This document shows positions 11,597 through 63,161 of a DNA stretch of 64,000 nucleotides, piece by piece. The notes beneath the pieces were generated by a model, which saw only the letters and a list, made by a program, of their open reading frames with translations, did no database searches and was not told the origin of the DNA. The position numbers and the translations under genes were made by a program. Origin of the DNA: Kondoa subrosea. Its lineage: Eukaryota. Location: positions 2,855,136 through 2,919,135 of the forward strand of contig BCIN01000001.1 in the NCBI GenBank assembly GCA_039545335.1. The letters are read 5' to 3'. Position 1 is the stretch's first letter. The number at the start of each line of letters is the position of its first letter.

Positions 11597-14119
11597 TTAC
11601 GTGCTGATGCTCATAGAATCCAAACTGACACTCAGACGACTAGCTTCATTGCCTTGCATGCGCGAAGAACCAGGGATATCCAAACCAGACAAATCTTCGG
11701 CTTCCGATGCTTCGCTGTCATCTTCTGAGTCTTCAGGATTCATGCCTTCTGGTGCTTCATATTCTCTGAAGAGATGTTCAATGTATGCTTTGGTCAAGGG
11801 AAGCTTGTAGGGTTCAAAAGGAAAATGCGTATTGACATGTCCTTCTGTCAAAAGCTGGCGAACGAGTTCATTAGAAGCTGGCGGTGCTCGACTATCGTCT
11901 GGTTGCATGTTGATCGATAGCTGATGAGAAGAATGAGATGCTAGAGGTGTAGTGGGGACAGAAGTTGAGGGTGAAGCTCGGTTGGATCGCTCATTGGATG
12001 CAATAACGTTGAAGCAATAAGCGAACCCAACATGATGTGCGATCTTGGCAAAAGTGAGGACAACTTCGGGAGCGCAGACCTGAAGATATCGTTAACGAGC
12101 ACTTCCAACATAAAGATTAAACAAGCGTACCTTCAAAGGATTCAGATGAGACAGAATTGCAGACTTGAGCATTTCCAATTCAGGTAACCACTTTCTTTGC
12201 CCAGCATTCTGTACATTTCTTTCCCCCAAACCTTCCTCATCTTCCTCCTCGACGAACAGATCCCTCCATCGATAGCAGAAGATATACATCGCCGCTTGAC
12301 AAACAGCATAGAAGACAGCGTACTGCTGAACATTCCTTTTGGCTGCTGCAGCTGAAGAAGCGGCAGGTAAAGTTTGTAGCTCCAATTCCAAGTGATCGCA
12401 CAGCAGCACCATAGCTGTTTGTACGCTAGATGGATCAATGTATCTTGCCCTTGCGATGAAACTTGCTACATATCCACATGCTGCCAGTCGAGTAACAGTA
12501 GGAGTCGTTTCTTGCTGATTGAGAGCGATCTCAACTAGCGTGCCGTTGAAAATGTCGGCATAGTCTGATGAAAGAGATGCATACCAGAACATGAGAAATT
12601 GGACATGCCTGGTCTTGAAAGTTCGCAGAATAGTCCGCTGGAAAGTACTAAGAAGATGCTGAAATTGAGTTGCTCGAGCTTGATCTGCTTCTTCTTTTGA
12701 CATGCCAGCAGCAATAAGACTTGTTCGCGAAGCGCTTTTGCGAAGTTGAGGAATGGCCGAAGTGGATTGAGAAGAAAAGCTGATGGGACGGGTCGAAGCA
12801 GAAGAGTAGCGAGAACTGTTGACGACTTCGAGATGATTGAAGAGAACCTTGAGTATCGCATCGAGTTTGGCTGCCATTTCTTTCAGTCTGGCAATGACCT
12901 CCGGTTTCTTCTCTTTAGCACCAGAGGGTCCCTGAGTATCATCTGACCCTGAATCACTCTCTTCATCTGACGAGATCTGATCTAGATCCAAAGCGAAATC
13001 ATCTTCCCCTTCTTCGCCATCCGATTCCTCTTCCACTTTGAATGCTCTATCAAACGGATCCTCCAAATCATGACCAAACACAGCGTTTTGCAAATTGCCC
13101 AGCTCGTCCTCGAACTCGTCAAGATCCACTTGTATTTCAACATCAATCTTCGTAGCTCGACTTATGGCTGCATCCAGAATATTTTCGGCTATCTGGGGAC
13201 AGTATTCGATGATTTGAAGGACGTTGCGAAAGTAGACTACTTGAGCATCTTTCTTCTCTCTTTTATTTGGGAAGTTGCGCTCAACGCAAGGTAAGAGTAC
13301 AGTAATCATTGTGGGCACTACATCGAGAAGATGGCGAAGAAGAATATGGGCTCGATCGTAGACTTGTCTTCGAGTAATGATGACTTCAGCTTCTGGTTCC
13401 GATGGAGCTTGTCCAGTGTCTGAATCAGAAGATAATCAGGCCCAAGATCTATCTCGCAAGTATCTTTAAGACTGACTCCATCTTAAGCCTTTGACAGTAG
13501 TCTCTACCACAGCTTTCAGATGTTCCGGTCTAGCGCTAACCAGCACACCCATGAAGCGAATATAGCTTCTCACAGAACTTTCTTCGGGGAAAAGTGTCCA
13601 AGGCAAAGCAATGAGTGCTTCCACCAAACTCGCATGCGACTTGTCTAGTTGATTGACTACATGTGTGAGTGCTTCCAAGTAAGATCGCAACTGACTCCCT
13701 GATGCGGGAGGTGGTTGAGAACTTGTCGACGTAGATTGAGCAGGTCGAAATTGTGCCACTAATTCATGGAATTGCTTGCGATCTCCATTCTAATAGAAGA
13801 CAACAGAGCTTTCAGATACTTTGTCAGCTGTCAGGTGACAAATCTGATGCACCTTGCGCATGGCGGAAAATGCCTGATCAATGTAAGAAAGAAACAAGCC
13901 GCGGGTTCTAGCATTGGTAGCGGAGGCCAAAGGTTTGGAATCAGCTGAAGAAGGAGTCGCAGGTCTATCAGTGCTGTCTTGCGAGGAGTTTCGACGTTTT
14001 CCAGCCAATGTTTGAGCAGAATTGCTGGTATTGTCAATCTCGCTGTGTGCGCGTTTCTTGCCTAGCGCTTTGGCAGATGACATGACAGGGGTATGATTAT
14101 GAGCGACTATAGAGACCAT
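11597..14119 (-). CDS. RRN3: RNA polymerase I initiation factor Rrn3 (start 14119 or 14083)
   Basis: KIDVEIQVDL, ILRTFKTRHVQFLMFW, YVASFIARA, FYAVCQAAMYIFCYRWRDL, LNPLK, FPFEPYKLP. Confidence 0.93.
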
Positions 14120-17600: not shown

Positions 17601-20600
17601 TCACAGATTTGTATCGATACTGAAGTCCTCACCGAACAATGATACTATATAAGAATCCAGATTGTGATTGTTTGCAGGCGAGTTGAAATCAGATGTCTTT
17701 CCCCATAATGCTGGAAGGCCGGCTGCTTTGAAGTAAGATGATGAATCGCACCAGCCAGTCACGGCGAATGAAATATCAAGAATATGAGAGGAGAGGAGTG
17801 CAGCGTCGTTTGACGCTAGAATTGCGTATAGCGAGTCTTGTACAGCAGGAAAACTTAGGAGGTGAGTGAGCTAGGAACTCTAGAATCGCGGAAAATACTC
17901 ACATAACATTTATCAAACCGATATTCTGCTGCAACAAAAATCCCAGAATGTTGAGCATCTTGATTTTGGTCTTGCTATCGCCTGCCTGCCGAACGGACCG
18001 AGAAAGGAGGCCGGCTAACAACAGCTGGTTTTCTGAGCTTGGCATGTCAATCAAGTCATAAAAGTTTGCGTCCTCCTTGCAGTGTATGCCCACAAGTTCT
18101 GCTACAGCCTTGATATCGTAGTATGGTAGAAGGAGAACCACGAACGGAACTAGATCTGCCGGTACTGATTGTCGGAATTCTTTTGGCTTGAGAAGTAGTT
18201 GCAATAATTCAACCGATTTTTGGGACAGTCCGGCTGGATCTTGCTGGATGAGCATGGCCAGAGAGTAGTTGGGAAAATCGATGAAATTGAGGCCGCAGGC
18301 TGCGCTGAGCGATGTCCAGGCAGGTTGAAAGAACGCGTCAAGGACGTAGCGAAGCATGTCCTCGAACGATTGCAGACAGACTTGATCATTTTGCAGTATT
18401 TGTAGACTAGTTGTCAAGATCCGAACGCCTGCGGTATAGGTTTCGCTATCTTGTATAGCGAGAAAGGCTAGCGAGATGCGGACGAGAAGAGGAAGATCTA
18501 AGCAAACATTTAGAGCAGCGATCAGGTTGGAGTCTACATTGACGTACAAGGGATCAAGACGGCTTGGCAATGGCAGACCTTATTACCCAAATTCAGTTGC
18601 GAACAAGGAACAGCTTCAGGGACACATACATTCGCTAGACAGCTCAATGCGGCTGCGGCAGCGTTCCGCGCAGTATCAGACTGTAGGCTCGAAGAAAGAA
18701 CGCCGAGAAGCTGGACGGACCATTCAGCATTCACAATCTCTTGATAAAAGGTGTTTATAGTACTTACATGATACACAAGCTCTTCTTCTATTTGATTGTC
18801 CCGCGCCAACAGCTGGCTCAGCAGAAAAAGCCCCCTGCTCCGGTATTGGCCTTGGGACTTGAACGCTAGCAGGCTTGTAAGTGAAGCAAGGTGAGAGGCC
18901 GAGCTGACTTCGCTCGAGTCGAAAAGCGTCAAGCATTGAGCGAAGATGCCATCCAAATGCCGATCGATATCGGAACGCTGCAAGTCTTCAGTCTTTTCCA
19001 AGCCCTCAAGTACTGCTTTTAGGCTTGTGCGTTGTTCGGCGATGCCTGTTCCCGAATCATGATCATCGGTTCGTTGCGTATTTCCCACTAGCAGCCAAAG
19101 TATGTCTTGTAGAAGACAATCGACTGCCTGTGAGCAGTTGAGATATAAAATGGCGAAGATAAACAGCGTATAAGCTTGGTCTGCAGCTGAGGGCTCAAAT
19201 GAGCCCGATCTGCTGCTGGAAAGAACGCCGCGTAGTAAAGATAGCAGCGCCACTATCGTCGGATAGATGGGATCAAAGCGATCTATTATCTTGCTTTGAG
19301 ACGTAATGAGCTGCAGGTCCAGTGAGCTCGGTGCTGCAAGCCTTCGGAGCTACAACTTACACGAGACATTTGAGCAAAAATGCTGCCACAAAGCGCAGCG
19401 TTGGTAAAAGGTGTGGATATAAGTGCAGAGTTGATTCGTGCAAGCTGAACAGCGCCCATTGGAAAGGTTGTGCATGCACTAAGATAGGCCTCGCTTAGCA
19501 AATCATGAAAGCCGTCCAGCTTTACGGCTCCCGCCAAGCTACGACTACTGAAGACGATAGAGGCCGAAGGATCTTCCGCTATCGTGTACTTCAGCCAGTA
19601 CATAACGGAATTGGTGCTGACTTACCGACTGTTTTCAGTATCAACCCCAGGGCATTCGCTACGAGCTTGCGTTTGGTATGACAGCGGAGAGAGAAGGCTG
19701 CAGTAAATATGGGTCGTATAGCATAGCATAGAGGACCGAGCAGCCAAGGTGTGTGTCGATGTTGCTGAAACGTTATTTGAACAGCAAACAGGAGATCCAG
19801 GACTTGATCGCCTCGATGCTCGACAAGAGCTTCGCATACGCAGAGCGCTAAGTCCGAAGCCAGCTCTGGGATAAAGCTCTCGCTTGAAGCTATCGAAGAT
19901 TGTGGCAGTAAGGCTTGAAGCAGCTTGCGCGCTGCCTTTCGATCGTGACCAATCAAAAGCTGCTGAATCGAGTAAATCGCAATAACACCAGACCTGTCAC
20001 TTGTAAGAATGGCAATTTTGGCCTTCCGTAAGACTTACCACTGGTTTGTTTGCAGGTCTGGATGCGGAAACGCATTGAAGGACAATGACGCGCAGGCCAA
20101 TATTTCATAAAGCGTCAAAGTACTTGCTGACTCTAGAAAAATGAGAGAACCGTGACTTGCATTTCGCAAAAGAGTCGCTGTACCGAAAGAGGTGGAAATG
20201 CGTTGTAGATTCGTAATTTGCTTTAAGTCGATAACATCTAACATCCTGCACTTGAGGTCTGGAAGAAGATCTCGCTCTTGTGTACCCTGGAGGACTTGCG
20301 GATCAGTAAAGAGCGAACAAAAAATATCGATCACACGCACATAACGAAATATTAGATAATCAGATTTGACAGCCAACTGAACCTGAATGGGCGAAAAACG
20401 ATATCCGCGCAATAACAGAGCCTCATAAACTTCTTCCGATTCGTCAAAGAAAGCAATAGGCGGAACAATTGTGTTATCAAAGTATTTGTCAAAGTCCGCT
20501 AAGTCGGTAATAGGATGGATGAGCTTGTGATCTGGATGTCTAGAGCAGCCTTGCAAGAGTGTCTTGAAATAAGATTGCAGATAATTCCCTGGCTGAACAA

Positions 20601-23600
20601 TATAGATTGCACTTATGCTCGAAGAGAGACCTGCGAAAATATCGACACAAGCTTCCATCCATGGCAACGGGATTTCGTTGACAGGCGAGAATCCGGTAGC
20701 GTCCACCAGTAGTGCGATTTCAGCGTCCTCCGTCGCCATTAGGTAAGATGCGACGTATCGCAGCAGGGATATATAATTGGTGCTCTGATTGATTGCGCCT
20801 AGATTCACGCAGTATGTTCGGCATCCGTTGCGAGACATGCCTATATCACGAAATATGCGAGAGAAGTCGCTAGAAACCCACAAGTCTTCGCATGCTTCGA
20901 CAGATGATAAGAATCCGGCAACCGTGTCAGTTTTGATGTAACTCGGTATGCCGGTACTGGATGGCCCGAGGTCGAAAAAAATGTGGTTCAGCTGCGTCCA
21001 TGATTCAGTTCCATCGTTAGCAGTGTTTTGATGTCTTCTGGACAAGAGCAATTGACCAAGCTGATCGTGATGATCTGAAAGAAAGGCCTGTAGCGAATGT
21101 AGATTGCAGTTGCTAAGATTTGGAGCTTCAATTTTCTGCTGATGTTGCTCCATATTGATTGCATAGGGATCAGAAATTTGCTGTAGAAATTGATGCATTA
21201 GTATTCCTAATTGCTGAGTATTTGGCTTGCTGTCTTCAGATTTCGCATGAGAGCTGTTGCTTAGGTTCTGCAGTAATTTTGAGACGGCCAAGAGTCCTCT
21301 GCGGGATGCTCGATCACTTGGCGCCGATATGCAAATCGCTTAAGCAGTTTCAAAATGAGATCATGTTATGGCAGTAAATGGCAGGGACTTGCCTTCTTGC
21401 GGCGATGTTATTGCAGGATTGATAAATCGCAGAAAGAGCAGACCTCCTATTATGCTCACCATCATCAGACGCAGAACATGGATTTCTGCCCGGAAGGCGT
21501 ACCAACGGCCGATCTACCAGCTCCATGCCATTTGGCTTCGACGGTAGTGTATAAGTGGACACACAATTGTCGAATATTGGAGGACAGCAAGTCGGTAGCA
21601 GCAAGAATGCACTAAAGCCGGTCAGTAGCTGAACCTTGTGAAGCGATATGCTACTCACCGTCAAGACTAGATTGACCGGATTAGATACATAAGATGCGTA
21701 TATCGGGAAGTCCTGACGTACATGCTTCGGCTAGGACATCGACGTTTTGCTTCACTTCTAATTGTTCCTCCCCATCACCGTCGACTTCAAGTTTGATTTC
21801 CATTGGCTTTTGACAAACACTTGTTACAAGCTATGGCAGTAGGCTTAGACATGAGCGAACGAGTGGCTACTGAAGAGGCTTTTGACATACGGGTCCAATT
21901 GTACTTCGCAACCACGTGAAACCTTGAGAGCGAACATATGAAGTCAGAAGTCGACTTGTGAAAGAGTTGCCACGGAACAGTGTTTGCGAATGGACTGTCC
22001 CGGCCACTTCAACTTCAATCAGCCGGCAGAGTCCTTTGACACTCATTTGCTTGCGTTCCAGAATGGTCAGGATCACGTCGGACATTTCTTCATACTCCAC
22101 TGGCGAGCACGCTTCCACCAATGCAAGCAGAAATGCGTCCGAACGAGCGATGAGCTGGAATGAACATCAGCGTGAAAGAACTTCAAATTTCAAAGAAGCA
22201 AACCAACATCTGTCAATTGTTCAAATAAATCGCTTCGACCAAGCTTTTTGCCAGTCGTAAGTGTGGTCTGAGGCTCAGCTTGGACCATAGATTTGAGGAA
22301 AACAGAAGAGGCCGCTTGGGTGTAGATATAGGATGTAGTCACCATCCTCGCTTCACTCTCCACATTCGCCGCTATCAGATTTCCGAGAGATATACAAGCC
22401 AGAGATTCCAGATCAGGCTCCATTGTCTGAGCGAGCAAAAATCAGGCCGGTTGGTCATCTGTGAAATTGATGCACGTACCTTGCTCTCGAAGAGCGAATC
22501 AAAAAATCCGCGAATTCTTAGATAAGATGGGATATCCGCTTGGACAGAAAAATTCGAAGTAGTCGAGGCAAAAGGCTCCGTGAAGTGAAGATTGTTCAAA
22601 AGAGCTCCTAATGCTTGCATACAAGCTCTTTGGACGCTTGAGGAGTCTTCTATGATCCATGTCATCAAATAATTGATCAAAATCTGACGCGTTTCTCCAT
22701 GGCTGAGTATATTGGATCTTTTTCCGCCGCTACTTCCGTGTAGGATTAGTGCGCCCAGCCAAGTTTTGAGTTCAGTGCAAAGAGTTGGATCGAGACCGTG
22801 AGCATGCTTGACGAATTCTAAGATCAAAGAATCTGCTAGCGACTCTTCTGCAGCGGACAAGGCGATCGTTTGCAGACGTTCAAGTATGCAAGCAAGTGTC
22901 TTGACCGCTTGTTGAAGCCACTCTGTAAAAGGCAGCACCATGTCATCGCCTTCCGACTCGAGATCGGTTCGAAAGTATTTGAGAATTTCCGCGACTTGCA
23001 CTAGCAGTGTTGGAAGTAATGGGCCAGGCAATTCGGAAGAAAGACACTCCCTGACACCTTCTGATACAAATTGTTGATCGCACACCAACAGATCAGTCAG
23101 CTCCTCGACCAGAGCTACCGCAGGACGACTGGTTGGACCGAATCTGTAGAATCGTTCTGGAAATTTGTCTATGGGTATGATGTCCTCCAAAGAGGGCAAT
23201 GTGACTGAAGAAACAGCATGACCGGAAACTGCCACGAGAAAGTTGCTGACATTGATCCAGTGTTGCAGCAGATGCTAGTCAGCCAGATAATAATTAGTCA
23301 ATGTAGTTCTGAGCCCAGCGGAGGCTCACGGGATCTACTTCTTCGGTGCTTGCAAATACGAGGTCCAATGAATCCTCTGGATGTTGATCCCTGCACTGGC
23401 CTAGATCCGACTAGATGATGTATTAAGCGAGTTCATATTGCAAAGCCTCACAAACAAACCAAAAGATGAGGAAAGTTGCGTCGCAGTTCTGAGAAGGCAG
23501 CAATACCAGCGACTGTAGTTGTTGAATGATTCGCAACTGTCTTGCGCAGCCATTTCACGAGCTGCCTAGACTGGCGTGAATCGGCAATCTCTTCAGCAGT

Positions 23601-31989: not shown

Positions 31990-32241
31990 GAGCTGATTAC
32001 GGACATGGCTGAATTGCAAGTCTGAAGAAAGTCAATGGGAGGAGTACTTGCAAATAGCTAAGGAAATCGTGGAGACTTCGTGATTGTTAATCAGGCAGCT
32101 GAGCGTGATATACGCATGAATCAATAGCGACTTCACTTAGCCTTAGATTTGGCTAACCCTCATGCTGTGTTTATGACTCTTTCTTGCTTCGAGAAGGCCA
32201 ACTCCAATGAGCCAATAGACGAGAGGAGATACCCCAATAGC

Positions 32242-35200
32242 ATGGCTCGGGTCAATGGGCATACCAATGGGCACGAAGGCAGCTCAACTCAAGAGGAAGC
32301 CGCTGCTACAGAAAGCAACATCAACGAATTAAGGCATGGGTTTCCAAGTGGAGAGAGCGAGCTGCAGGATTCTTACTACTACTGGACTGAAGTAAGCATG
32401 TTCATCTATTCCGCCGATCAGCAGCTCAAAGCCTTGCAATTCCAGGTTCGGCCAGAACAAGGCAACATTACTTGGACTCCGTCAAGTCAGCAGCAAACGG
32501 ACTGGAGAAGCAATCCGAAGCCCAAGACTACTCAGGCCTCTCTTCTGGTCTGCCTCCGCTTGGGATACGAACCACCAGATGTTGTAAAGACAGATCCATG
32601 TGCTAAACTCGAATGCTGGGTCGATACGCAAGTCGTAACTAAAGACAAGGCTCTGGAACAAGTCGGTATCAATCTACAGAAGCAGTATGAGAGCATTGCG
32701 GCAACTACCAAAATGAAGTACCGAGTACAGCTAGATCCAAAAGTAGACGAGACCAAGAAGTCTTTAATAGCTCTCAGGCGAGCTGCTAAGCAAGAGCGAG
32801 TACTGGTTCACTATAATGGTCATGGTGTGCCGAAGCCGACAGCGAGCGGCGAAATCTGGCTTTTCGACAAAGACTATACTCAATATATTCCCGTCAAGCT
32901 CTCTGACTTCCTTGGCTATGTAGAAGCTCCAAATATTCTCATCTGGGACTGCTCGGCTGCTGGTAACATTGTAGCCAAAATGGAAGAAGCTGTCAATGAG
33001 AGGGCGGAAGAAGCTTCTCGACCTGGTCCGATGAGGCATGGGCAGCAACAGCCAAATCCTTCAGCTGGAATACCATGGAGGGAAACTTTGCAATTAGGTG
33101 CATGTTCGGGCAATCAAACATTACCTATGAACCCAGATCTGCCAGCAGATCTCTTCACTTCTTGTCTTACTTCACCAATCGAGATGGCTCTTCGCTTCTT
33201 CATCTTACGCAATCCACTCAAAGCCGACTATGATCTCAATCTCACTTTTCAAATACCAGGCAAACTAACGGAACGTCGGACACCGCTAGGAGAACTGTTC
33301 TGGATTTTTACTAGCGTAACAGATACCATTGCATGGAATACAATACCTCACGCTACTTTTCAACGGCTCTTTCGTGGCGATCTTACAGTCGGTGGGCTGT
33401 TTAGAAGCTACCTATTGGCAGAGCGAATCATGCGGCACTACGAATGCACTCCCGTCTCCGTACCAGCGCTTCCGCCTACACATAATCATCCTCTCTGGGA
33501 TTCTTGGGACTTAGCGGTAGATCGATGCTTGGCTCAACTTCCAGCTATCTTAGCGAGGGAAAAGCTAAGGCAAGAGATGCACGATAAAGGATTACCAGTC
33601 CCACCAGAAACCGTTTTCCAGCAGTCGAGGTTCTTCACAGATCAACTTATGGCCTTCGAGCGTTGGCTGGAACAAGGAACTGCTCGATGTGCTGTGCCAA
33701 ATTTGACCGATTTTTCTACTGAAGCACCTACACCTCTTCCTTCTGACGGCACAACGAGACCACATCGATCCTATCCCGAACAACTTCCCATCGTCTTACA
33801 AGTCCTGCTCTTTCAAGCATATCGTATGCAAGCACTCACTCTCTTGGTCTCCTTCCTCAATCTCGGCTCTTGGGCGGTACATCTAGCGTTATCCATCGGT
33901 ACTTTCCCATACGTTCTCAAACTCCTACAAGCACCTCCGACAGGCGAACACAAACCTTATCTCATCTTCATCTGGACTCGTATTCTTGGTGTCTTCCCTT
34001 CATGTCAAGAAGATCTCATCAAACCTCAACCAGCACCTCTGACGGGAAACAGACAAGGGGAACTACCTTTTCATTTCTTTGTTCGAGTCTTACTACCACA
34101 ACCAACAAGCTCGACAGGCAATCTAAGTGAAATGCGAGCTATGTGCTGCTTCATCATTGCTCAACTGTGTCGAGATTTCCCCAGAGGTCAAGCAGCTTGT
34201 CTCTTACATCCAGCAGTAATGGATGCTCTTTCGACACATCTGTTTGATGAAGATCCGCTGCTGAGGCAATGGGCTGCTTTAGCCATAGCACAATTATGGA
34301 ACAACAATGCTCAAGCTAAAAGTCGCGGATTGATGGAGAACGTTCATACCAAGTTGACTGATATGGTTGTGGATGATGTACCAGACGTTCGAGCTTCAGT
34401 TATTTATGCTCTAGGCACGTTTCTTGGTGCTCCGGGTGGCGCCAACGTAACTGCTCCAGCTGGAAGATCTTTAGCCAGTATAGCACCGCAAGAGCTCAAT
34501 GTAGATTTCGATGGAACGGAAACGGCTTTGGGTATTGCTCTATCTGTTCTACGAGCGTTGAACGACGGATCACCAATGGTCAGGAAACAAGTTATTGTTC
34601 TTCTTTCTGTCGTAGTTGGAGACTTCATGGGTAGCATGGTCGTGGCAGCTCATCAGAATCAAGAGAAGGAGAAACTCAAGAGAAAGTCGGATGCACAACT
34701 CGCTGACACAATAGAACAGAGTTTGCACGATGCGATAGAAGCTGGTGACCCACCTTCCAGCCCAGCTTTCAAGACTGTCATCTTCGCAAGCATCTATCGA
34801 GCCTTGTGTGATTTGGCCACTGATCCTCATCCTTCGGTCAGCGATATGGCTGCTATTGTTCTTGATCAAATACACGACGCTCTTTTCTCGTCTTCCCTTG
34901 CACCTGGCAATGATTCTGCTTTTGGTGACAGCTCTTCCGTTGTATCTCGAAATACCTCACCGTATTCGTCTGTTCGGGGCGGTCTGGAACGCTCTATGTC
35001 TCAAGCTACCAATCTTGGCGCCTTACAAGAAGAAGAGCCTTACAATAAACCTCTCAAGAGAATAAATTCGGTCGGAAGCGCTCTGAAGAGTTTAGCTGGT
35101 CTTACTTTCACTGAACCCTCTGGCTCAACGTCTAACAGGCAGCGTGGTACTCGGAGTCAAATACCTTCACCGGAAAATTCTAGTCCTCTACTTCGACAGG

Positions 35201-36945
35201 CGAAAAGTACAGATTCTCTTAGACGGCAAGCATCATCAGACGAAGAAGCTTCAGTCGACAGTCACTACACTGAACTTGTTGAGAAAGACGAAGCGCGATT
35301 GAACTACTTGCATGCGAGACATACTTCGAGTTTCCCGCTGGCCGAAACGGATGAGATGGTCGAATCTGGCAACTTCATCGATAAGGGTCCTTTGCCTCTT
35401 CGATCTGACTTCTTCGATTACTCGCTTCGGCTATTCACTGTCCCTCAAATCAAGGTAAGCTCATTGTAATTCCTTAAATCAATGTCGTTTGACTTTGTCA
35501 TACAGACGGACGAATCGTCAGAGCCTGGTAGTGTGGAATACAACGCACGATTATGGCGAAGAGAAAGAGCAGACAACATTGTCCTAGCGACTCAACCTTT
35601 GCGAGAAGAAGCAGGTCGACACAGATGGGATGAACAGATAGCTTTCGCTCACAACGATTCTCCGCCTACTCGGGCTATCTTCCATCAATTTGAAGATCAT
35701 CTCATTAGTGCTGATGAAGCCGGTCGAATAGCGTAAGTGATCATACGTTGACGAAATAAATAATCTCATGCGCTTTGCCTTATAGCACATTCGACTGGCG
35801 GCGGAATAAGAAAATACATCGCTTCAACAACGAACCTTCTTCTGATGGCAGAAGCTCCACAAGCAGAATAACAACACTCAAGCTAATCAATGAGACTGAT
35901 CAAGCAATGCTCCTGACCGGTTCTGGTATGCACATACTTTTTCTCCGTCTGATCATCACTAATCTTCGTCCGCAGCGGACGGCTGTATACGATTGTTCCA
36001 GAAGTATTCAACGTCGGAAGTAGAACTCGTCACCGCTTTCCGAGGCCTTTCAGATCTAGCTCGTAGTACACGACAAGAAGCGGGAGTGATCTGCGAATGG
36101 CAACAGAATCGAGGTCAGCTTTTGGTCGGAGGTAATTCCAAGACTATACGAATTTGGGATGCTGGAAAGGATGCTTGTGATCTCGTGCGTCGGGCCCTTT
36201 CAATTCTTCTTCTTTCGCACTGCTGAAGTACGAGCTATCGAAAACAGGAAATACCTACTAGATCGAATTCCTGCATAACATCGATGACTTCAGATCAAAC
36301 TCATGGCGATATCGTGATTGCTGGATTTGGCGATGGAGTGATCCGAGTCTATGATAGAAGATTAGCTCATAGAGAGCAGATGACGCATATGTACCGCGGT
36401 CAGCATCAAGCTTGGATTCAAGATGTTCATATGCAAGCTGGTGGAAGAAGGGAGCTGATATCGGGCGGGTCAGTCTGCTCTTCTTCTCTGACTGATATTT
36501 GCTCACCAAAGTAAGCACAGAATGACCGGAGAAGTCTGTTTATGGGATCTTAGACGCTCTGATGGTCCTCTGCGAACGTCTCAAGCCCATTCTGGCGGAC
36601 TGCTTGGATTTGCTCTGCACGATCATGCTCCTGTATATGCTACGTATGCTCCTGTATGTGCTGATTTGCCAAGTACTGACTCTCTTATGGGTAGCGGCTC
36701 TGCATATCAAGTCATCAAAGTCTGGAATACAGCTGGACAAGATCCAATCAGCAAGTTCCGTAATGGAGCAAGTTATATGCCTCAGAAGAATTTCAACATG
36801 ACTACAATGACTTTCCATCCTCACCATATGGTTCTGGCTGTGGGAGCGGAAGATGGTCATTTGAATGTCAGTCCGATCCCTTATTGACATCTCAGTGTAG
36901 CTGATCTATACTTCTTAATAGGTGTATCGAAGCGATGTGCACTAG
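32242..36945 (+). CDS. KOG1: TORC1 subunit Raptor (Kog1/Mip1)
   Basis: RNC domain PPDVVKTDPCAKLECW, HYNGHGVPKPTASGEIW, PADLFTSCLTSPI; HEAT repeats; C-terminal WD40 exons. Confidence 0.97.
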
Positions 36946-38258: not shown

Positions 38259-38263
38259 AAAAA
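38259..38263 (-). terminator. RNA polymerase III oligo-T terminator of tRNA-Pro
   Basis: TTTTT on the minus strand one nucleotide after discriminator C73. Confidence 0.7.
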
Positions 38264-38264
38264 T

Positions 38265-38479
38265 GAGCCTGTACGGGAATTGAACCCATGACCACTCCCA
38301 AATACGTCTGGGCAGAGCACCAGGGGTGACGAAACCCGAAGGGAGTACTGTGGACGAGCAAGTTAGAGGTGTCGATGATTACATAAGCTTTTGCCACGAA
38401 CTCCTACTACTAGACCTGTGATCGAGCAGATGAGCAGCGTTCTGGCGAGGATAGGAGCTGAGGAACTTACCAACAGGCC
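38265..38479 (-). tRNA. tRNA-Pro(CGG) in 4 exons: 38479-38471, 38415-38402, 38347-38335, 38300-38265
   Basis: Joined exons give GGCCTGT TG GTCT AGTAGTA GGAT A CTCCC TT CGG GT GGGAG TGGTC ATGGG TTCAATT CCCGT ACAGGCT C (72 nt); all four stems pair; B-box GGTTCAATTCC; two GT-AG introns and one 37/38 intron removed. Confidence 0.88.
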
Positions 38480-38932
38480 GGCAATTTTGGAGAAAACGAA
38501 AAATTCACTGTGCGTTTGCAAACTAAGACTTATTTATCTGTAGGATTTACTATCGTCCTCGTCAGCTCCCGACCCCCCTTTTCAAGCAAGCGGTCGAAGT
38601 TGCTGTTTCCCGCCAAACTGACGGAAATCTGATGCCAAAAGAGGATGACACAATAAGAAGCATATTTGTACGACACAAGATGAACAGCGTGGCCGCAGGT
38701 AGAGAGTACGATACAATATAATGCATTTTTTTTTACAAGGAATTATTGAAACAAAGTAGAAACACTCATGAATACAGCAATCATGCAAGTCGGATCAAAT
38801 TCTTTCTCTTTTACCTCATGGTCGACTCAGTTTAAGTTGGGCGAGTTCTCCCGTCCGTGATGGAGTCGAACGGAGTGAGGCTGTTGTTGCATAGACGATC
38901 GCTTTTTCCGACGAGCACCTGTTTTGCCTGAA

Positions 38933-40324
38933 TCAGTCCAACAATGACAAAGCAGACATCAAGCTCACCTTAGAGGCCATTGGTGTTTCTTGTGACCACA
39001 ATCGCTGCGCCCATTGATTGACCCAAACACTCTCATGATCTTTCTCGCCCAACACTTTGAATCGAAACCTTAATCGCATCTGCTTCCTTCCGTTGTTTAA
39101 TCGTAGAAGAGGTAAGAAATGCCTTCGTGTAACAATAAATGGATCTTCCTCTTCTTCTTTACTAGAGATAGCAGAAAAGTCTTGATCGGATAAATGATCG
39201 TAAGCCGCATCGATAGAGATATATTTCAGGTTTGGTAGATGGACAAGAGGTGCGTATGTTGTAGATTCGATAGGTCGAAAGAACAAGAGGTTGTTGAGCG
39301 TGAAGCTGTCTAAATGAGGAAGATGTACCAGACTACTGATCAGAGCTTGGAGTTCACTGATTTCTGGTGAGTCGTAGATATTGATCACTAGTTCTTTGCA
39401 ATGGGGAAAGAGGGACCAAAGCCGTTTGAGTTGTTTTGGATCACGATGAATGTCATCCAGCATGACTCTGTCCATTTTCAAGTGTGTAACATTTGGGTAG
39501 ATCAAATCGATGGGAAGTGTTTTGAGGAAAGGAGGGATCGACCATGTGACATGATCGCCTCTGAGCATCAGATGTGTGACCAGATTTGCGGCTTCGGGGG
39601 TAATTAGGACATAGGTGTAATTGGGCGCCGTGAGCTCAGGATTTTCTTCATCCGGTATGCCAATCTTATCACATATTGGTAGCTTGTAAAGTGCTAATGC
39701 GGAGACGTCTATCTGGAGCTTGTGTAATTGATTAGGCAAAGTTGTTGGCAATAGGGAGCGAGGCCAAAAGTTGATGAATCGGAGACAGGATATCGTGACA
39801 GGCTTGCTGAAGATAGAAGAGAAGGAAGGGATTGTGTAAGAAGGAGGAACATTGACTATCTCGATAGTCAAGCAGTGTATAGTCGAAAGGAAGCTGAGGT
39901 CTGCTTCATCAAAGTCAAATGTCGTCTGAAAATGAGAGAACTTAGTAGAAGTGGTAGAAATAGAGAGATGTAGGGTATTGATATTGCTCAGTCTGGAGAG
40001 CAGATAGACTTGGTTCAAAAAGGTGCTTTTGTGCTGTGGCCATGCTCCAGGCTTTGTCGTTCCAGTGATCCTGGCGATCGTCATATCCCAGCGAACCGTT
40101 TTGACCATTGATCTATACGCTTCCTTTTGCCCTAGCACTTCTTCCTTGAGATTCCTTATGCAGTGGTTTCCGCTGAGGTGCAAGTCATAATAGCACCAAG
40201 GGGTCCATATCTCATTGAACTGCTTGTTGACCAAGCGTAGTGACCAGAAAGTAGCTTGACTGCCTTTATCTTTTCGAAGGTGTTGTGCTATTATTGCGAC
40301 CAGATCGAAGGGAAGTGTATGCAT
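38933..40324 (-). CDS. intronless F-box/LRR-like protein
   Basis: MHTLPFDLVAIIAQHL...LRLVNKQFNEIWTPWCY F-box-like start followed by LxxLxL repeats. Confidence 0.7.
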   Translation of the reverse strand: MHTLPFDLVAIIAQHLRKDKGSQATFWSLRLVNKQFNEIWTPWCYYDLHLSGNHCIRNLKEEVLGQKEAYRSMVKTVRWDMTIARITGTTKPGAWPQHKSTFLNQVYLLSRLSNINTLHLSISTTSTKFSHFQTTFDFDEADLSFLSTIHCLTIEIVNVPPSYTIPSFSSIFSKPVTISCLRFINFWPRSLLPTTLPNQLHKLQIDVSALALYKLPICDKIGIPDEENPELTAPNYTYVLITPEAANLVTHLMLRGDHVTWSIPPFLKTLPIDLIYPNVTHLKMDRVMLDDIHRDPKQLKRLWSLFPHCKELVINIYDSPEISELQALISSLVHLPHLDSFTLNNLLFFRPIESTTYAPLVHLPNLKYISIDAAYDHLSDQDFSAISSKEEEEDPFIVTRRHFLPLLRLNNGRKQMRLRFRFKVLGEKDHESVWVNQWAQRLWSQETPMASKVSLMSALSLLD

Positions 40325-41706: not shown

Positions 41707-47069
<5,363 letters not shown>

Positions 47070-61672: not shown

Positions 61673-63161
61673 CTAGCATATCTTCCTTCCCACTGCGTTT
61701 GGGTTCTGTGACAAATCTCATCAGCTGCATTGAGTTAGAGCGATCTACATAAACTCACCTTCCTTCCCATACCAACAACAGGCATTCCATCTCTCCCAAC
61801 TCTAACTCCTCTCCCCCTCGTCTTCCTACCTTTTTCTCCTAGAAGCATGACAGGTTGCCAATCCACATCCACTTTCCCTCTCTCCAATTCTTTCGCAGCC
61901 AACTTCTCTTCCTTCCTTCTCTGAATCTCATACCTTTGCTGACCTTTCAAATATTCTTTCTGATCAGGTCTTAGTATGAGCGTATCTTCACCAGATCGTT
62001 TACTCGCTCCAGAGGATGATAAAGGTGAAGGCAAAGCGTATATAGTTCCTCGGTTGTGGTATTGAAAATTAGATTTCAAGTGTAAGATGTACCCTTTTGG
62101 ATGTTCGGGTGTAGGTTGAGGTAAGTAGGTTATTGAAGTTCGAAGAAGAGTTGAGTTTCCACACGAAGGGCAGAATTTCTCTATTGGGTTTTTGCAGAGC
62201 CTGATATCGAATAGATCAGTTTGAGGAACGAATTGGAGAAGAGGAGGAAGAACATACTTGTAACATGCATGGCATCTCAATACCCAAGTACGGACGTTTC
62301 TCACTTTCAATCCATTCACACCAACAATGTTCAACCCCATTTGTAGACCAACGTTCTGCATCGCGAAATCACCAGTAATACAGGCTGCTTCCATTTGCTG
62401 TGCAGAAGAAGAAGAAGATCCAGTCAGAGGAGCAGAAGAGATGAGACCTGTATCTTTTGCTCGATGTGTCGTTAGATTGGACGGAGTGATCCATTCTCCT
62501 TCATCGGAATCTGAATCGCTTTCTTCTGCTTTTTGAGTGACTTTGGTAGGTACTTCAGTCCATTCATCCTCTCCTGTTTCTTCAGCTTGTTCTTGCGAGA
62601 CTTGTTCAGGTTGAGAAGAATGTTCCTGTTCTTGTTGCAGATTCAATTGCTCTACTTTCTCTTGAACCTGATCAATATCCTCTTCAGCTTTCCTCTTCAG
62701 TCTAGCTTCCCTTTTCAACTTGGCTATCCTTTCCTTTTCCAACTCGAATTCAGTTTTCGCACCAGGACTTGAACGAATTCGTTTTGTTCCATTTGCTTCC
62801 ACTTCAACCGTATAAAGTAGAGCAAGTATTTGTAAATCCGTAGAAGATAATACAGCTATATCACCCGTTTTCCTAGCAAAGGCAGTAACTATTTCACTCC
62901 TCACATCAACTATTCTGTCATGGATTCATGCAATGAAAAGCACGAACCTTTTGCTACTGAATCAGCAGTAGGTGTTTTCACTTTCAAACCACCACCTTCA
63001 ACTAAAGACCAAGCTTGTAAAGCAGTTCGAGATTTTTCATCCCTGATTTCATCCAATACAGATTTCGTAGTCACAAAGTTATGAGCTAGAGTTTTTAAAG
63101 TCGATACTGGACATGTAAGGAGTGGAGCAGAATCTAGGACTAGAGTGTCTATGGAAGGCAT
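61673..63161 (-). CDS. NOB1: 20S pre-rRNA D-site endonuclease Nob1
   Basis: PIN domain LVLDSAPLL, FARKTGDIAVLSSTDL, GEWITPSN, TGDFAMQNV, Zn ribbon LRCHAC...FCPSCGN. Confidence 0.96.

Follow-up and report, generated by a model that had tools for sequence, protein, structure and literature searches.

The 64,000-nucleotide stretch of contig BCIN01000001.1 from Kondoa subrosea analysed here (forward-strand positions 2,855,136 to 2,919,135; hereafter the window, in whose own numbering all coordinates are given) carries a gene for a proline transfer RNA (tRNA), tRNA-Pro(CGG), that is interrupted three times. The analysis confirms that the gene contains two GT-AG segments in the region encoding the D-arm and a canonical tRNA intron between tRNA positions 37 and 38. 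Judging from these sequence features, we think it somewhat probable that this is a working nuclear gene that has gained, at 9/10 and at 24/25, introns of the spliceosomal U2 type (GT-AG) besides an ordinary 34-nucleotide (nt) intron at position 37/38.

Organisation of the interrupted tRNA-Pro(CGG) gene

The gene occupies 38265..38479 on the minus strand, as do all of its parts described here, and is 215 nt long in total, of which the exons account for 72 nt including the discriminator C. Exon 1 (38471..38479) comprises 9 nt and supplies tRNA positions 1-9, that is, the 5' strand of the acceptor stem followed by U8 and G9. In the cloverleaf drawn by the tRNA finder ARAGORN, seven of these nucleotides pair with the 3' acceptor strand through six Watson-Crick pairs and a G1.U72 pair. 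Directly 3' of exon 1 lies the sequence GTAAGT, the donor of intron 1 (38416..38470). This 55-nt insert of the spliceosomal type interrupts the tRNA at position 9/10 and also contains a branch-like word, CTCAT, and a CACAG acceptor. It is followed by exon 2 (38402..38415), a micro-exon of 14 nt corresponding to positions 10-24, which encodes the 5' strand of the D-stem, a 7-nt D-loop (AGTAGTA), and three nucleotides of the 3' strand of the D-stem, and which includes an A-box-like word. Intron 2 (38348..38401), of 54 nt and likewise of the spliceosomal type, interrupts the tRNA at position 24/25 and displays a GTTCGT donor, a CTAAC branch word, and a CACAG acceptor.

Exon 3 (38335..38347) provides positions 25-37 in 13 nt: the last base of the D-stem, position 26, the 5' strand of the anticodon stem, the anticodon CGG, and G37. 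ARAGORN places the canonical tRNA intron (38301..38334, 34 nt) between positions 37 and 38, with a register that is uncertain by one T, and in a local fold the G residues of the anticodon pair with a CCC word within this intron. The 3' exon (38265..38300, 36 nt) contributes positions 38-73, comprising the 3' strand of the anticodon stem, the variable loop, the T-arm, the 3' acceptor strand, and the discriminator C; CCA is not encoded at the 3' end of the gene. The B box, GGTTCAATTCC, lies at 38276..38286; the pattern GGTTCRANNCC has no other match in the window, both strands considered. Direct reading of the sequence also reveals a run of five T residues (T5) at 38259..38263, one base (A) past the discriminator, that resembles a terminator for RNA polymerase III (Pol III).

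Restoration of the tRNA by excision in silico

ARAGORN was run in intron mode on four constructs of the locus: unspliced, with each GT-AG segment removed singly, and with both segments removed. The doubly excised construct was called as a tRNA-Pro(cgg) of 72 bases, a length that includes the discriminator base, with a 34-nt intron in the anticodon loop and a score of 106.1, and it was the only one to be called; no gene was reported for the unspliced locus or after either single removal. The stems of the restored cloverleaf comprise 21 pairs, all of them standard (four are G.U), and contain no mismatch. The anticodon loop has 7 nt, and T54-T55-C56, U8, A14, U33, and G37 are present at their places.

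As a window-wide control, GT..AG segments of 40-80 nt on both strands were excised singly and in pairs and the resulting constructs were submitted to ARAGORN. With the segments restricted to the pattern GTNNGT..YAG, 483 single and 100 paired excisions produced one call, at the tRNA-Pro(CGG) locus. With any GT..AG segment allowed, 19,348 single and 169,283 paired excisions (188,631 constructs) produced 21 calls, every one of them within about 38.3-38.6 kb, and the proposed pair obtained the top score. Excision constructs outside this locus gave no ARAGORN call anywhere in the 64-kb window. The intron mode of ARAGORN is tolerant, as it still called a tRNA in 81 of 162 variants whose boundaries had been moved by up to 4 nt. 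No shifted variant scored better than the exact GT-AG boundaries (106.1), and the variants that tied with them were three equivalent registers of intron 1 and one variant of intron 2 that keeps two extra nucleotides. The equivalence arises from a GGT direct repeat at both intron 1 junctions, which allows four registers with an identical product.

The permissiveness of ARAGORN near the locus is what might be expected if the tRNA were a chance resemblance or an artefact of assembly, an explanation that we find barely credible. Chance is contradicted by the lack of a call from any excision construct outside the locus and by exon 1 itself, a 9-nt exon that pairs perfectly with the 3' acceptor strand and is followed immediately by GTAAGT. 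An assembler, for its part, would not be expected to make two different inserts of ~55 nt that both carry splice signals.

Standard finders do not detect the gene in the native window, in which ARAGORN reported no genes and an Rfam search at gathering thresholds returned no matches. A lenient Rfam search (E<=5) matched a tmRNA model, from the tRNA clan, to 38272-38339 with 18.9 bits on the T-arm, and gave two chance-level matches in the rest of the window. When a 21-nt word from the T-arm and acceptor was compared with metagenomes, it was found at 18 loci, all of which are bacterial tRNA-Asp or tRNA-Glu genes or clusters, with no relative among them.

An earlier reading of this DNA, made without database searches (the sequence-only reading), had described the locus with these coordinates and sequence words, all of which are present on the minus strand. 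It had claimed that excision at the GT/AG boundaries gives a 72-nt cloverleaf with introns at 9/10 and 24/25, with which ARAGORN agrees once both segments are removed, and that standard tRNA finders would probably miss the gene, as both ARAGORN and Rfam did apart from the lenient match to the T-arm. The check that it had suggested, removal of GT-AG segments in silico before tRNA finding, restored one locus when performed here with ARAGORN on the 64-kb window. Its structural reading, in which D-arm inserts with spliceosomal hallmarks accompany a canonical intron, is supported by the excision tests and by the comparison with local mRNA introns. It had further proposed that the spliceosome and the tRNA splicing endonuclease would both be needed for maturation, a proposal about function that goes beyond this structural support. 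It had not remarked on the missing GG of the D-loop, the non-consensus branch word of intron 1, or the displacement of the A box by ~55 bp.

Resemblance of the D-arm inserts to local mRNA introns

Introns of protein-coding genes in the window were screened for by joining open reading frames (ORFs); a candidate had to have at least 50 open codons on each side and to introduce a stop codon when read through. The screen reduced 540 raw candidates to 30 filtered rows at 18 distinct donor sites. The shortest versions of the introns at these 18 ORF-validated messenger RNA (mRNA) donor sites are mostly 47-64 nt long and contain the branch words CTGAY or CTAAC. At 55 and 54 nt, the two tRNA inserts fall within this mode, and the CTAAC of intron 2 fits the local CTRAY branch consensus. 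GTAAGT, the donor of intron 1, also occurs among the ORF-validated mRNA donors, and GTTCGT, the uncommon donor of intron 2, also starts a plausible 62-nt mRNA intron at 377-438 on the plus strand (flanked by 49 and 261 open codons), a likeness between donors that is partly circular because the validated set was chosen for G at +5 and T at +6. The match to mRNA introns in length and donor words that the sequence-only reading had asserted is found again in the 47-64 nt mode, in the validated GTAAGT, and in the GTTCGT at 377-438.

The two inserts also resemble one another. In each, the branch-like A lies exactly 16 nt from the 3' end and the last bases are CACAG, and 14 positions are identical across the final 19 nt (38416-38434 and 38348-38366), which share the pattern TGCTCG..CACAG. 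Similarity over the whole introns is mild, with 8 of 500 shuffles reaching the alignment score. A common origin of intron 1 and intron 2 is possible. No second copy of intron 1, intron 2, or the 34-nt intron is present in the 64-kb window, where the best other match spans 13 nt.

Runs of four or more T residues are absent from all three introns. This absence was considered as a signature of Pol III transcription and rejected, since 14 of the 18 mRNA donor sites also lack such a run, which renders the feature weak and uninformative.

Folding of the precursor and bulge-helix-bulge candidates

An alternative explanation for the D-arm interruptions is that the tRNA splicing endonuclease (TSEN) recognises a bulge-helix-bulge (BHB) motif in them and cuts them out as non-canonical tRNA introns, as happens in Cyanidioschyzon merolae, nucleomorphs, and archaea, their GT-AG ends being coincidental. 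We know of no ectopic BHB introns in fungi. Multiple and ectopic tRNA introns do exist in some eukaryotes according to the available parts of PMC3728597 and PMC10485636. Introns of this kind in nuclear tRNA genes of C. merolae and in archaea resemble those of tRNA-Pro(CGG) in that a tRNA gene may have up to three of them, some in the D-arm, and be invisible to standard eukaryotic finders (PMC3728597, PMC3978253, PMC4390854, and PMC10485636, each as available in part). They differ in being BHB introns that are removed by the tRNA endonuclease, whereas the D-arm inserts of tRNA-Pro(CGG) present no acceptable BHB and combine GT-AG ends with a branch or branch-like word and the length of an mRNA intron. 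The accessible text of PMC10485636, a 2023 review, limits eukaryotic TSEN to introns at 37/38.

BHB candidates were enumerated as a central helix of 4 base pairs (bp) with two 3-nt bulges containing the cut sites and with flanking helices, and a tolerance of +/-3 nt was allowed. Intron 2 yielded no candidate within this tolerance. One weak candidate can be drawn for intron 1, a 4-bp helix with two 3-nt bulges in which two of the four pairs are G.U; it would produce the wrong junction and leave extra nucleotides behind. Removal of the D-arm inserts by TSEN through a BHB was rejected on these two grounds. Neither the minimum-energy fold nor local folds put the junctions in bulges, and both inserts have donor and acceptor words together with a branch or branch-like word, their length being the modal one among local mRNA introns. 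We consequently regard the endonuclease explanation as very improbable for these two inserts.

In the 216-nt precursor, the acceptor, anticodon, and T stems are preserved in both the minimum-energy and the centroid fold, neither of which contains a BHB at the D-arm junctions. The stability of the precursor fold is ordinary (z = -0.56), with 57 of 200 shuffles folding at least as well. The third interruption resembles the canonical introns that TSEN and ligase remove: it shares with them the 37/38 position, a typical size (34 nt), and pairing with the anticodon, and it is unusual only in sharing a gene with GT-AG introns.

A separate feature of the folds is a 9-bp helix, with seven Watson-Crick and two G.U pairs, formed by 38451-38459 and 38399-38407 on the minus strand. 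One of its strands comes from the 5' part of intron 1, and the other runs from the end of exon 2 into the opening three bases of intron 2, so that the intron 2 donor is covered. The minimum-energy fold contains the helix and the centroid fold a part of it, and the odds of its arising by chance are roughly 0.08, a figure that is an estimate and not a computed control. It could hold the second donor back until intron 1 leaves, or it could be due to chance.

Putative promoter elements and possible activity of the gene

Direct reading of the 5' flank (38480..38503, minus strand) reveals a T5 run at 38503-38499 and a T4 run at 38496-38493, followed by CTCCAAAATTGCC; the two runs lie 14-24 nt upstream of tRNA position 1. 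If the T5 run acts on Pol III, any start that includes exon 1 must lie downstream of it. The same run would also block read-in by Pol III from upstream. Further out, a TATA-like word, ATAAATAA, can be read at 38530..38537, 51-58 nt upstream of tRNA position 1, and we speculate by analogy with U6 genes that it may fix the transcription start.

Several features weigh against a working gene, some of which concern initiation. The locus has no contiguous A box, because intron 1 comes between positions 8-9 and the positions from 10 on. Exon 2 contains an A-box-like word that lies ~64 nt into the gene, lacks one G of its GG, and has been shifted by intron 1 to ~55 bp downstream of its normal place. 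An A box normally spans nt ~8-19 of the gene, at a distance of 10-20 bp from the start site, and TFIIIC directs initiation from the spacing of the A box. Textbook initiation would therefore take place inside intron 1 and miss exon 1, so that one has to postulate either a start set by a TATA element or a different polymerase. The tRNA itself is also imperfect: its D-loop, AGTAGTA, is without the near-universal G18-G19 doublet, its top acceptor pair is G.U, and ARAGORN gives it a rather low score of 106.1, which passes the 105% thresholds and fails those at 110% (bacterial tRNAs in the same run scored about 102-122). With respect to splicing, intron 1 has in CTCAT a branch word that does not fit the local CTRAY consensus, the first exon (9 nt) and the internal one (14 nt) are both very small for spliceosomal recognition, and transcripts made by Pol III have no cap. 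Some fungi can do without a CGG isoacceptor, which would allow a dead copy to persist. Finally, the support so far comes from a single locus in a single window.

These features would suit a disabled gene, namely a once-normal tRNA-Pro(CGG) gene that received two intron-like insertions and is now silent, wrongly initiated, or unspliced. The insertions would have arrived via reverse splicing and retro-recombination or with an introner-like element, and CCG would be read by another copy or by the UGG isoacceptor. The D-loop without GG, the low ARAGORN score, the A box ~55 bp from the expected start, and the weak branch word of intron 1 are all consistent with such a history. So is the precision of the excision, as insertion by reverse splicing would allow removal at GT/AG to restore the target exactly without any selection. 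Yet the 21 stem pairs contain no mismatch, the B box, the T5 terminator, and the canonical intron are intact, and the splice signals are undecayed. Two separate gains within 72 nt also suggest that the gene was still transcribed, and that the insertion was probably tolerated, after the first gain, while the lack of sister copies of the inserts in the 64-kb window makes a recent expansion of a repeat family less likely. The clean stems, the intact signals, and the occurrence of two independent gains speak against long decay, and we consider a disabled gene possible if rather doubtful.

The difficulty of initiation could also be met by RNA polymerase II (Pol II). The tRNA is situated between two genes on the same strand: the coding sequence of the upstream one ends near 38.83-38.93 kb, ~350-450 nt from the tRNA, and the next ATG on this strand is ~600 nt downstream of the tRNA. 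The locus might therefore lie within a read-through or non-coding transcript from the upstream gene that is spliced by the spliceosome and from which RNase P and RNase Z free the tRNA. Coupling of splicing to Pol II would explain how such short exons are recognised and would remove the problem of A-box spacing. Set against this is the full Pol III layout of the gene, with its B box, the T5 run after the discriminator, and a 5' flank that is T-rich and then of the CAAAA type. The A-rich words resembling poly(A) signals that can be read directly between the upstream gene and the tRNA also speak against read-through, and we judge a Pol II origin of the precursor to be unlikely. We continue to favour a working gene transcribed by Pol III.

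The upstream gene appears, on direct reading, to have an intron of ~41 nt near its 3' end (GTGAGC...CTGAT..CAG, 38927-38967, minus strand). With that intron, its coding region would probably run to ~38.83 kb instead of stopping at 38933.

Neighbouring genes and host lineage

The window encodes a Raptor/Kog1 protein, a subunit of TORC1, at 32149-35469 on the plus strand, where one exon stays open for about 1100 codons. Among named organisms, the closest relatives of this protein belong to the Pucciniomycotina: Mixia osmundae reaches 47% identity, and Sporobolomyces, Rhodotorula, and other Microbotryomycetes reach 41-47%. Two further Raptor homologues are closer still, at 76% (P0001) and 67% (P0002) identity. 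Judged by these relatives, the host is a basidiomycete lineage near the Pucciniomycotina that seems thinly represented among named genomes. Matches to PDB structures indicated a fungus that is not close to Chaetomium or Saccharomyces. Pfam matches in the window also identify the Pol I initiation factor RRN3 (12092-13309, minus strand), a CRAL/TRIO domain protein (20035-21198, minus strand), fragments of an ABC-ATPase split by short introns (43015-44593, plus strand), and a NOB1 zinc ribbon (61735-62394, minus strand). Several ORFs of 200-630 amino acids in the window have no Pfam match.

Precedents for spliceosomal introns in structural RNA genes

Rhodotorula hasegawae, a yeast of the Pucciniomycotina, is the classic case of mRNA-type introns in small nuclear RNA (snRNA) genes. 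From its placement and from the Raptor relatives, the fungal lineage with intron-bearing U6 genes appears to be the same as, or a neighbour of, the one that carries tRNA-Pro(CGG). The available parts of a 2018 review of U6 (PMC5855946) describe mRNA-type introns in the U6, U2, U1, and U5 snRNA genes of R. hasegawae and up to four of them in a single fungal U6 gene. The hosts recorded there for such introns are U6, U2, U5, and U1 snRNA genes and ribosomal RNA (rRNA) genes, with no tRNA among them in those parts. Taken together with the relatives of Raptor, the R. hasegawae snRNA introns provide a nearby precedent for spliceosomal splicing of a Pol III transcript.

The U6 genes of Schizosaccharomyces pombe and R. 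hasegawae are, like tRNA-Pro(CGG), short non-coding genes expected to be transcribed by Pol III and interrupted by GT-AG introns (PMC5855946, available in part). On the same partial source, fungal U6 genes have one to four short introns that carry canonical donor, branch, and acceptor signals, are otherwise unconserved, and are thought to have arisen by reverse splicing. tRNA-Pro(CGG) differs from U6 in that the host RNA is a tRNA, outside the spliceosome, in that a TSEN-type intron is also aboard, so that one small RNA would be processed by two splicing systems, and in that the exons, at 9 and 14 nt, are much smaller. As a tRNA is not a part of the spliceosome, nearness to the catalytic centre cannot explain the gain of these introns.

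Introns of the spliceosomal type are likewise found in conserved, structured RNA regions of the U1, U2, and U5 genes of R. hasegawae and of ascomycete ribosomal DNA (rDNA) (Takahashi 1993, 1996; Bhattacharya 2000, as cited in the accessible portions of PMC5855946 and PMC2586383; see also PMC8527467, in part). The rDNA case further provides, within these portions, an instance of spliceosomal introns in genes that are not transcribed by Pol II. tRNA-Pro(CGG) differs from these genes in RNA class and polymerase, and they need no second, protein-only splicing pathway.

No report of a spliceosomal intron in a tRNA gene was found in the full-text literature searched, which covers few subscription journals; the sequence-only reading had similarly known of no established case. 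The available parts of five papers on disrupted tRNA genes and tRNA introns (PMC3978253, PMC4390854, PMC13578239, PMC12530127, and PMC10485636) contain no spliceosomal tRNA intron.

Proposed maturation and implications

In the pathway that we propose for a working gene, a precursor of ~220-230 nt would start a few bases upstream of exon 1 and end at the T5 run. Transcription would most simply be carried out by Pol III, as for the intron-bearing fungal U6 genes. The spliceosome would take out the 55-nt and 54-nt introns, joining the 9-nt, 14-nt, and downstream exons, and the 37/38 intron would be left to TSEN and a ligase. The ends would be completed by RNase P, RNase Z, and the CCA-adding enzyme. 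By analogy with what has been proposed for snRNA introns, the D-arm introns most likely originated through reverse splicing into an abundant RNA, reverse transcription, and recombination.

A tRNA would be a host class beyond the earlier ones for known spliceosomal introns in structural RNA genes, joined here by a canonical tRNA intron. Reviews, in the parts available, associate spliceosomal introns with Pol II transcripts and with a small number of snRNA and rRNA genes, and introns cut by the endonuclease with tRNAs (PMC5855946, PMC10485636). A tRNA gene with both types of intron would break this division of intron types by RNA class. In our estimation it is evenly balanced whether tRNA-Pro(CGG) is the first tRNA to need both the spliceosome and the tRNA endonuclease, with intron gain in non-coding RNAs extending from snRNAs to tRNAs in a basidiomycete lineage and with the 9- and 14-nt exons of a Pol III precursor being spliced correctly.

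The gene bears on whether a Pol III precursor that is highly structured, has no cap, and contains micro-exons can be processed by the spliceosome. It also bears on whether reverse splicing seeds introns in any abundant RNA or only in RNAs located at the spliceosome's active site, both of which are left possible in the accessible text of PMC5855946. According to the available part of PMC10485636, the eukaryotic mode of tRNAscan-type finders considers canonical introns only, so that such finders would overlook split genes and tRNA sets would appear to have gaps. If the proposed reading is true, there may be a hidden class of tRNA genes that standard finders skip, and fungal isoacceptors that are seemingly missing would be split genes.

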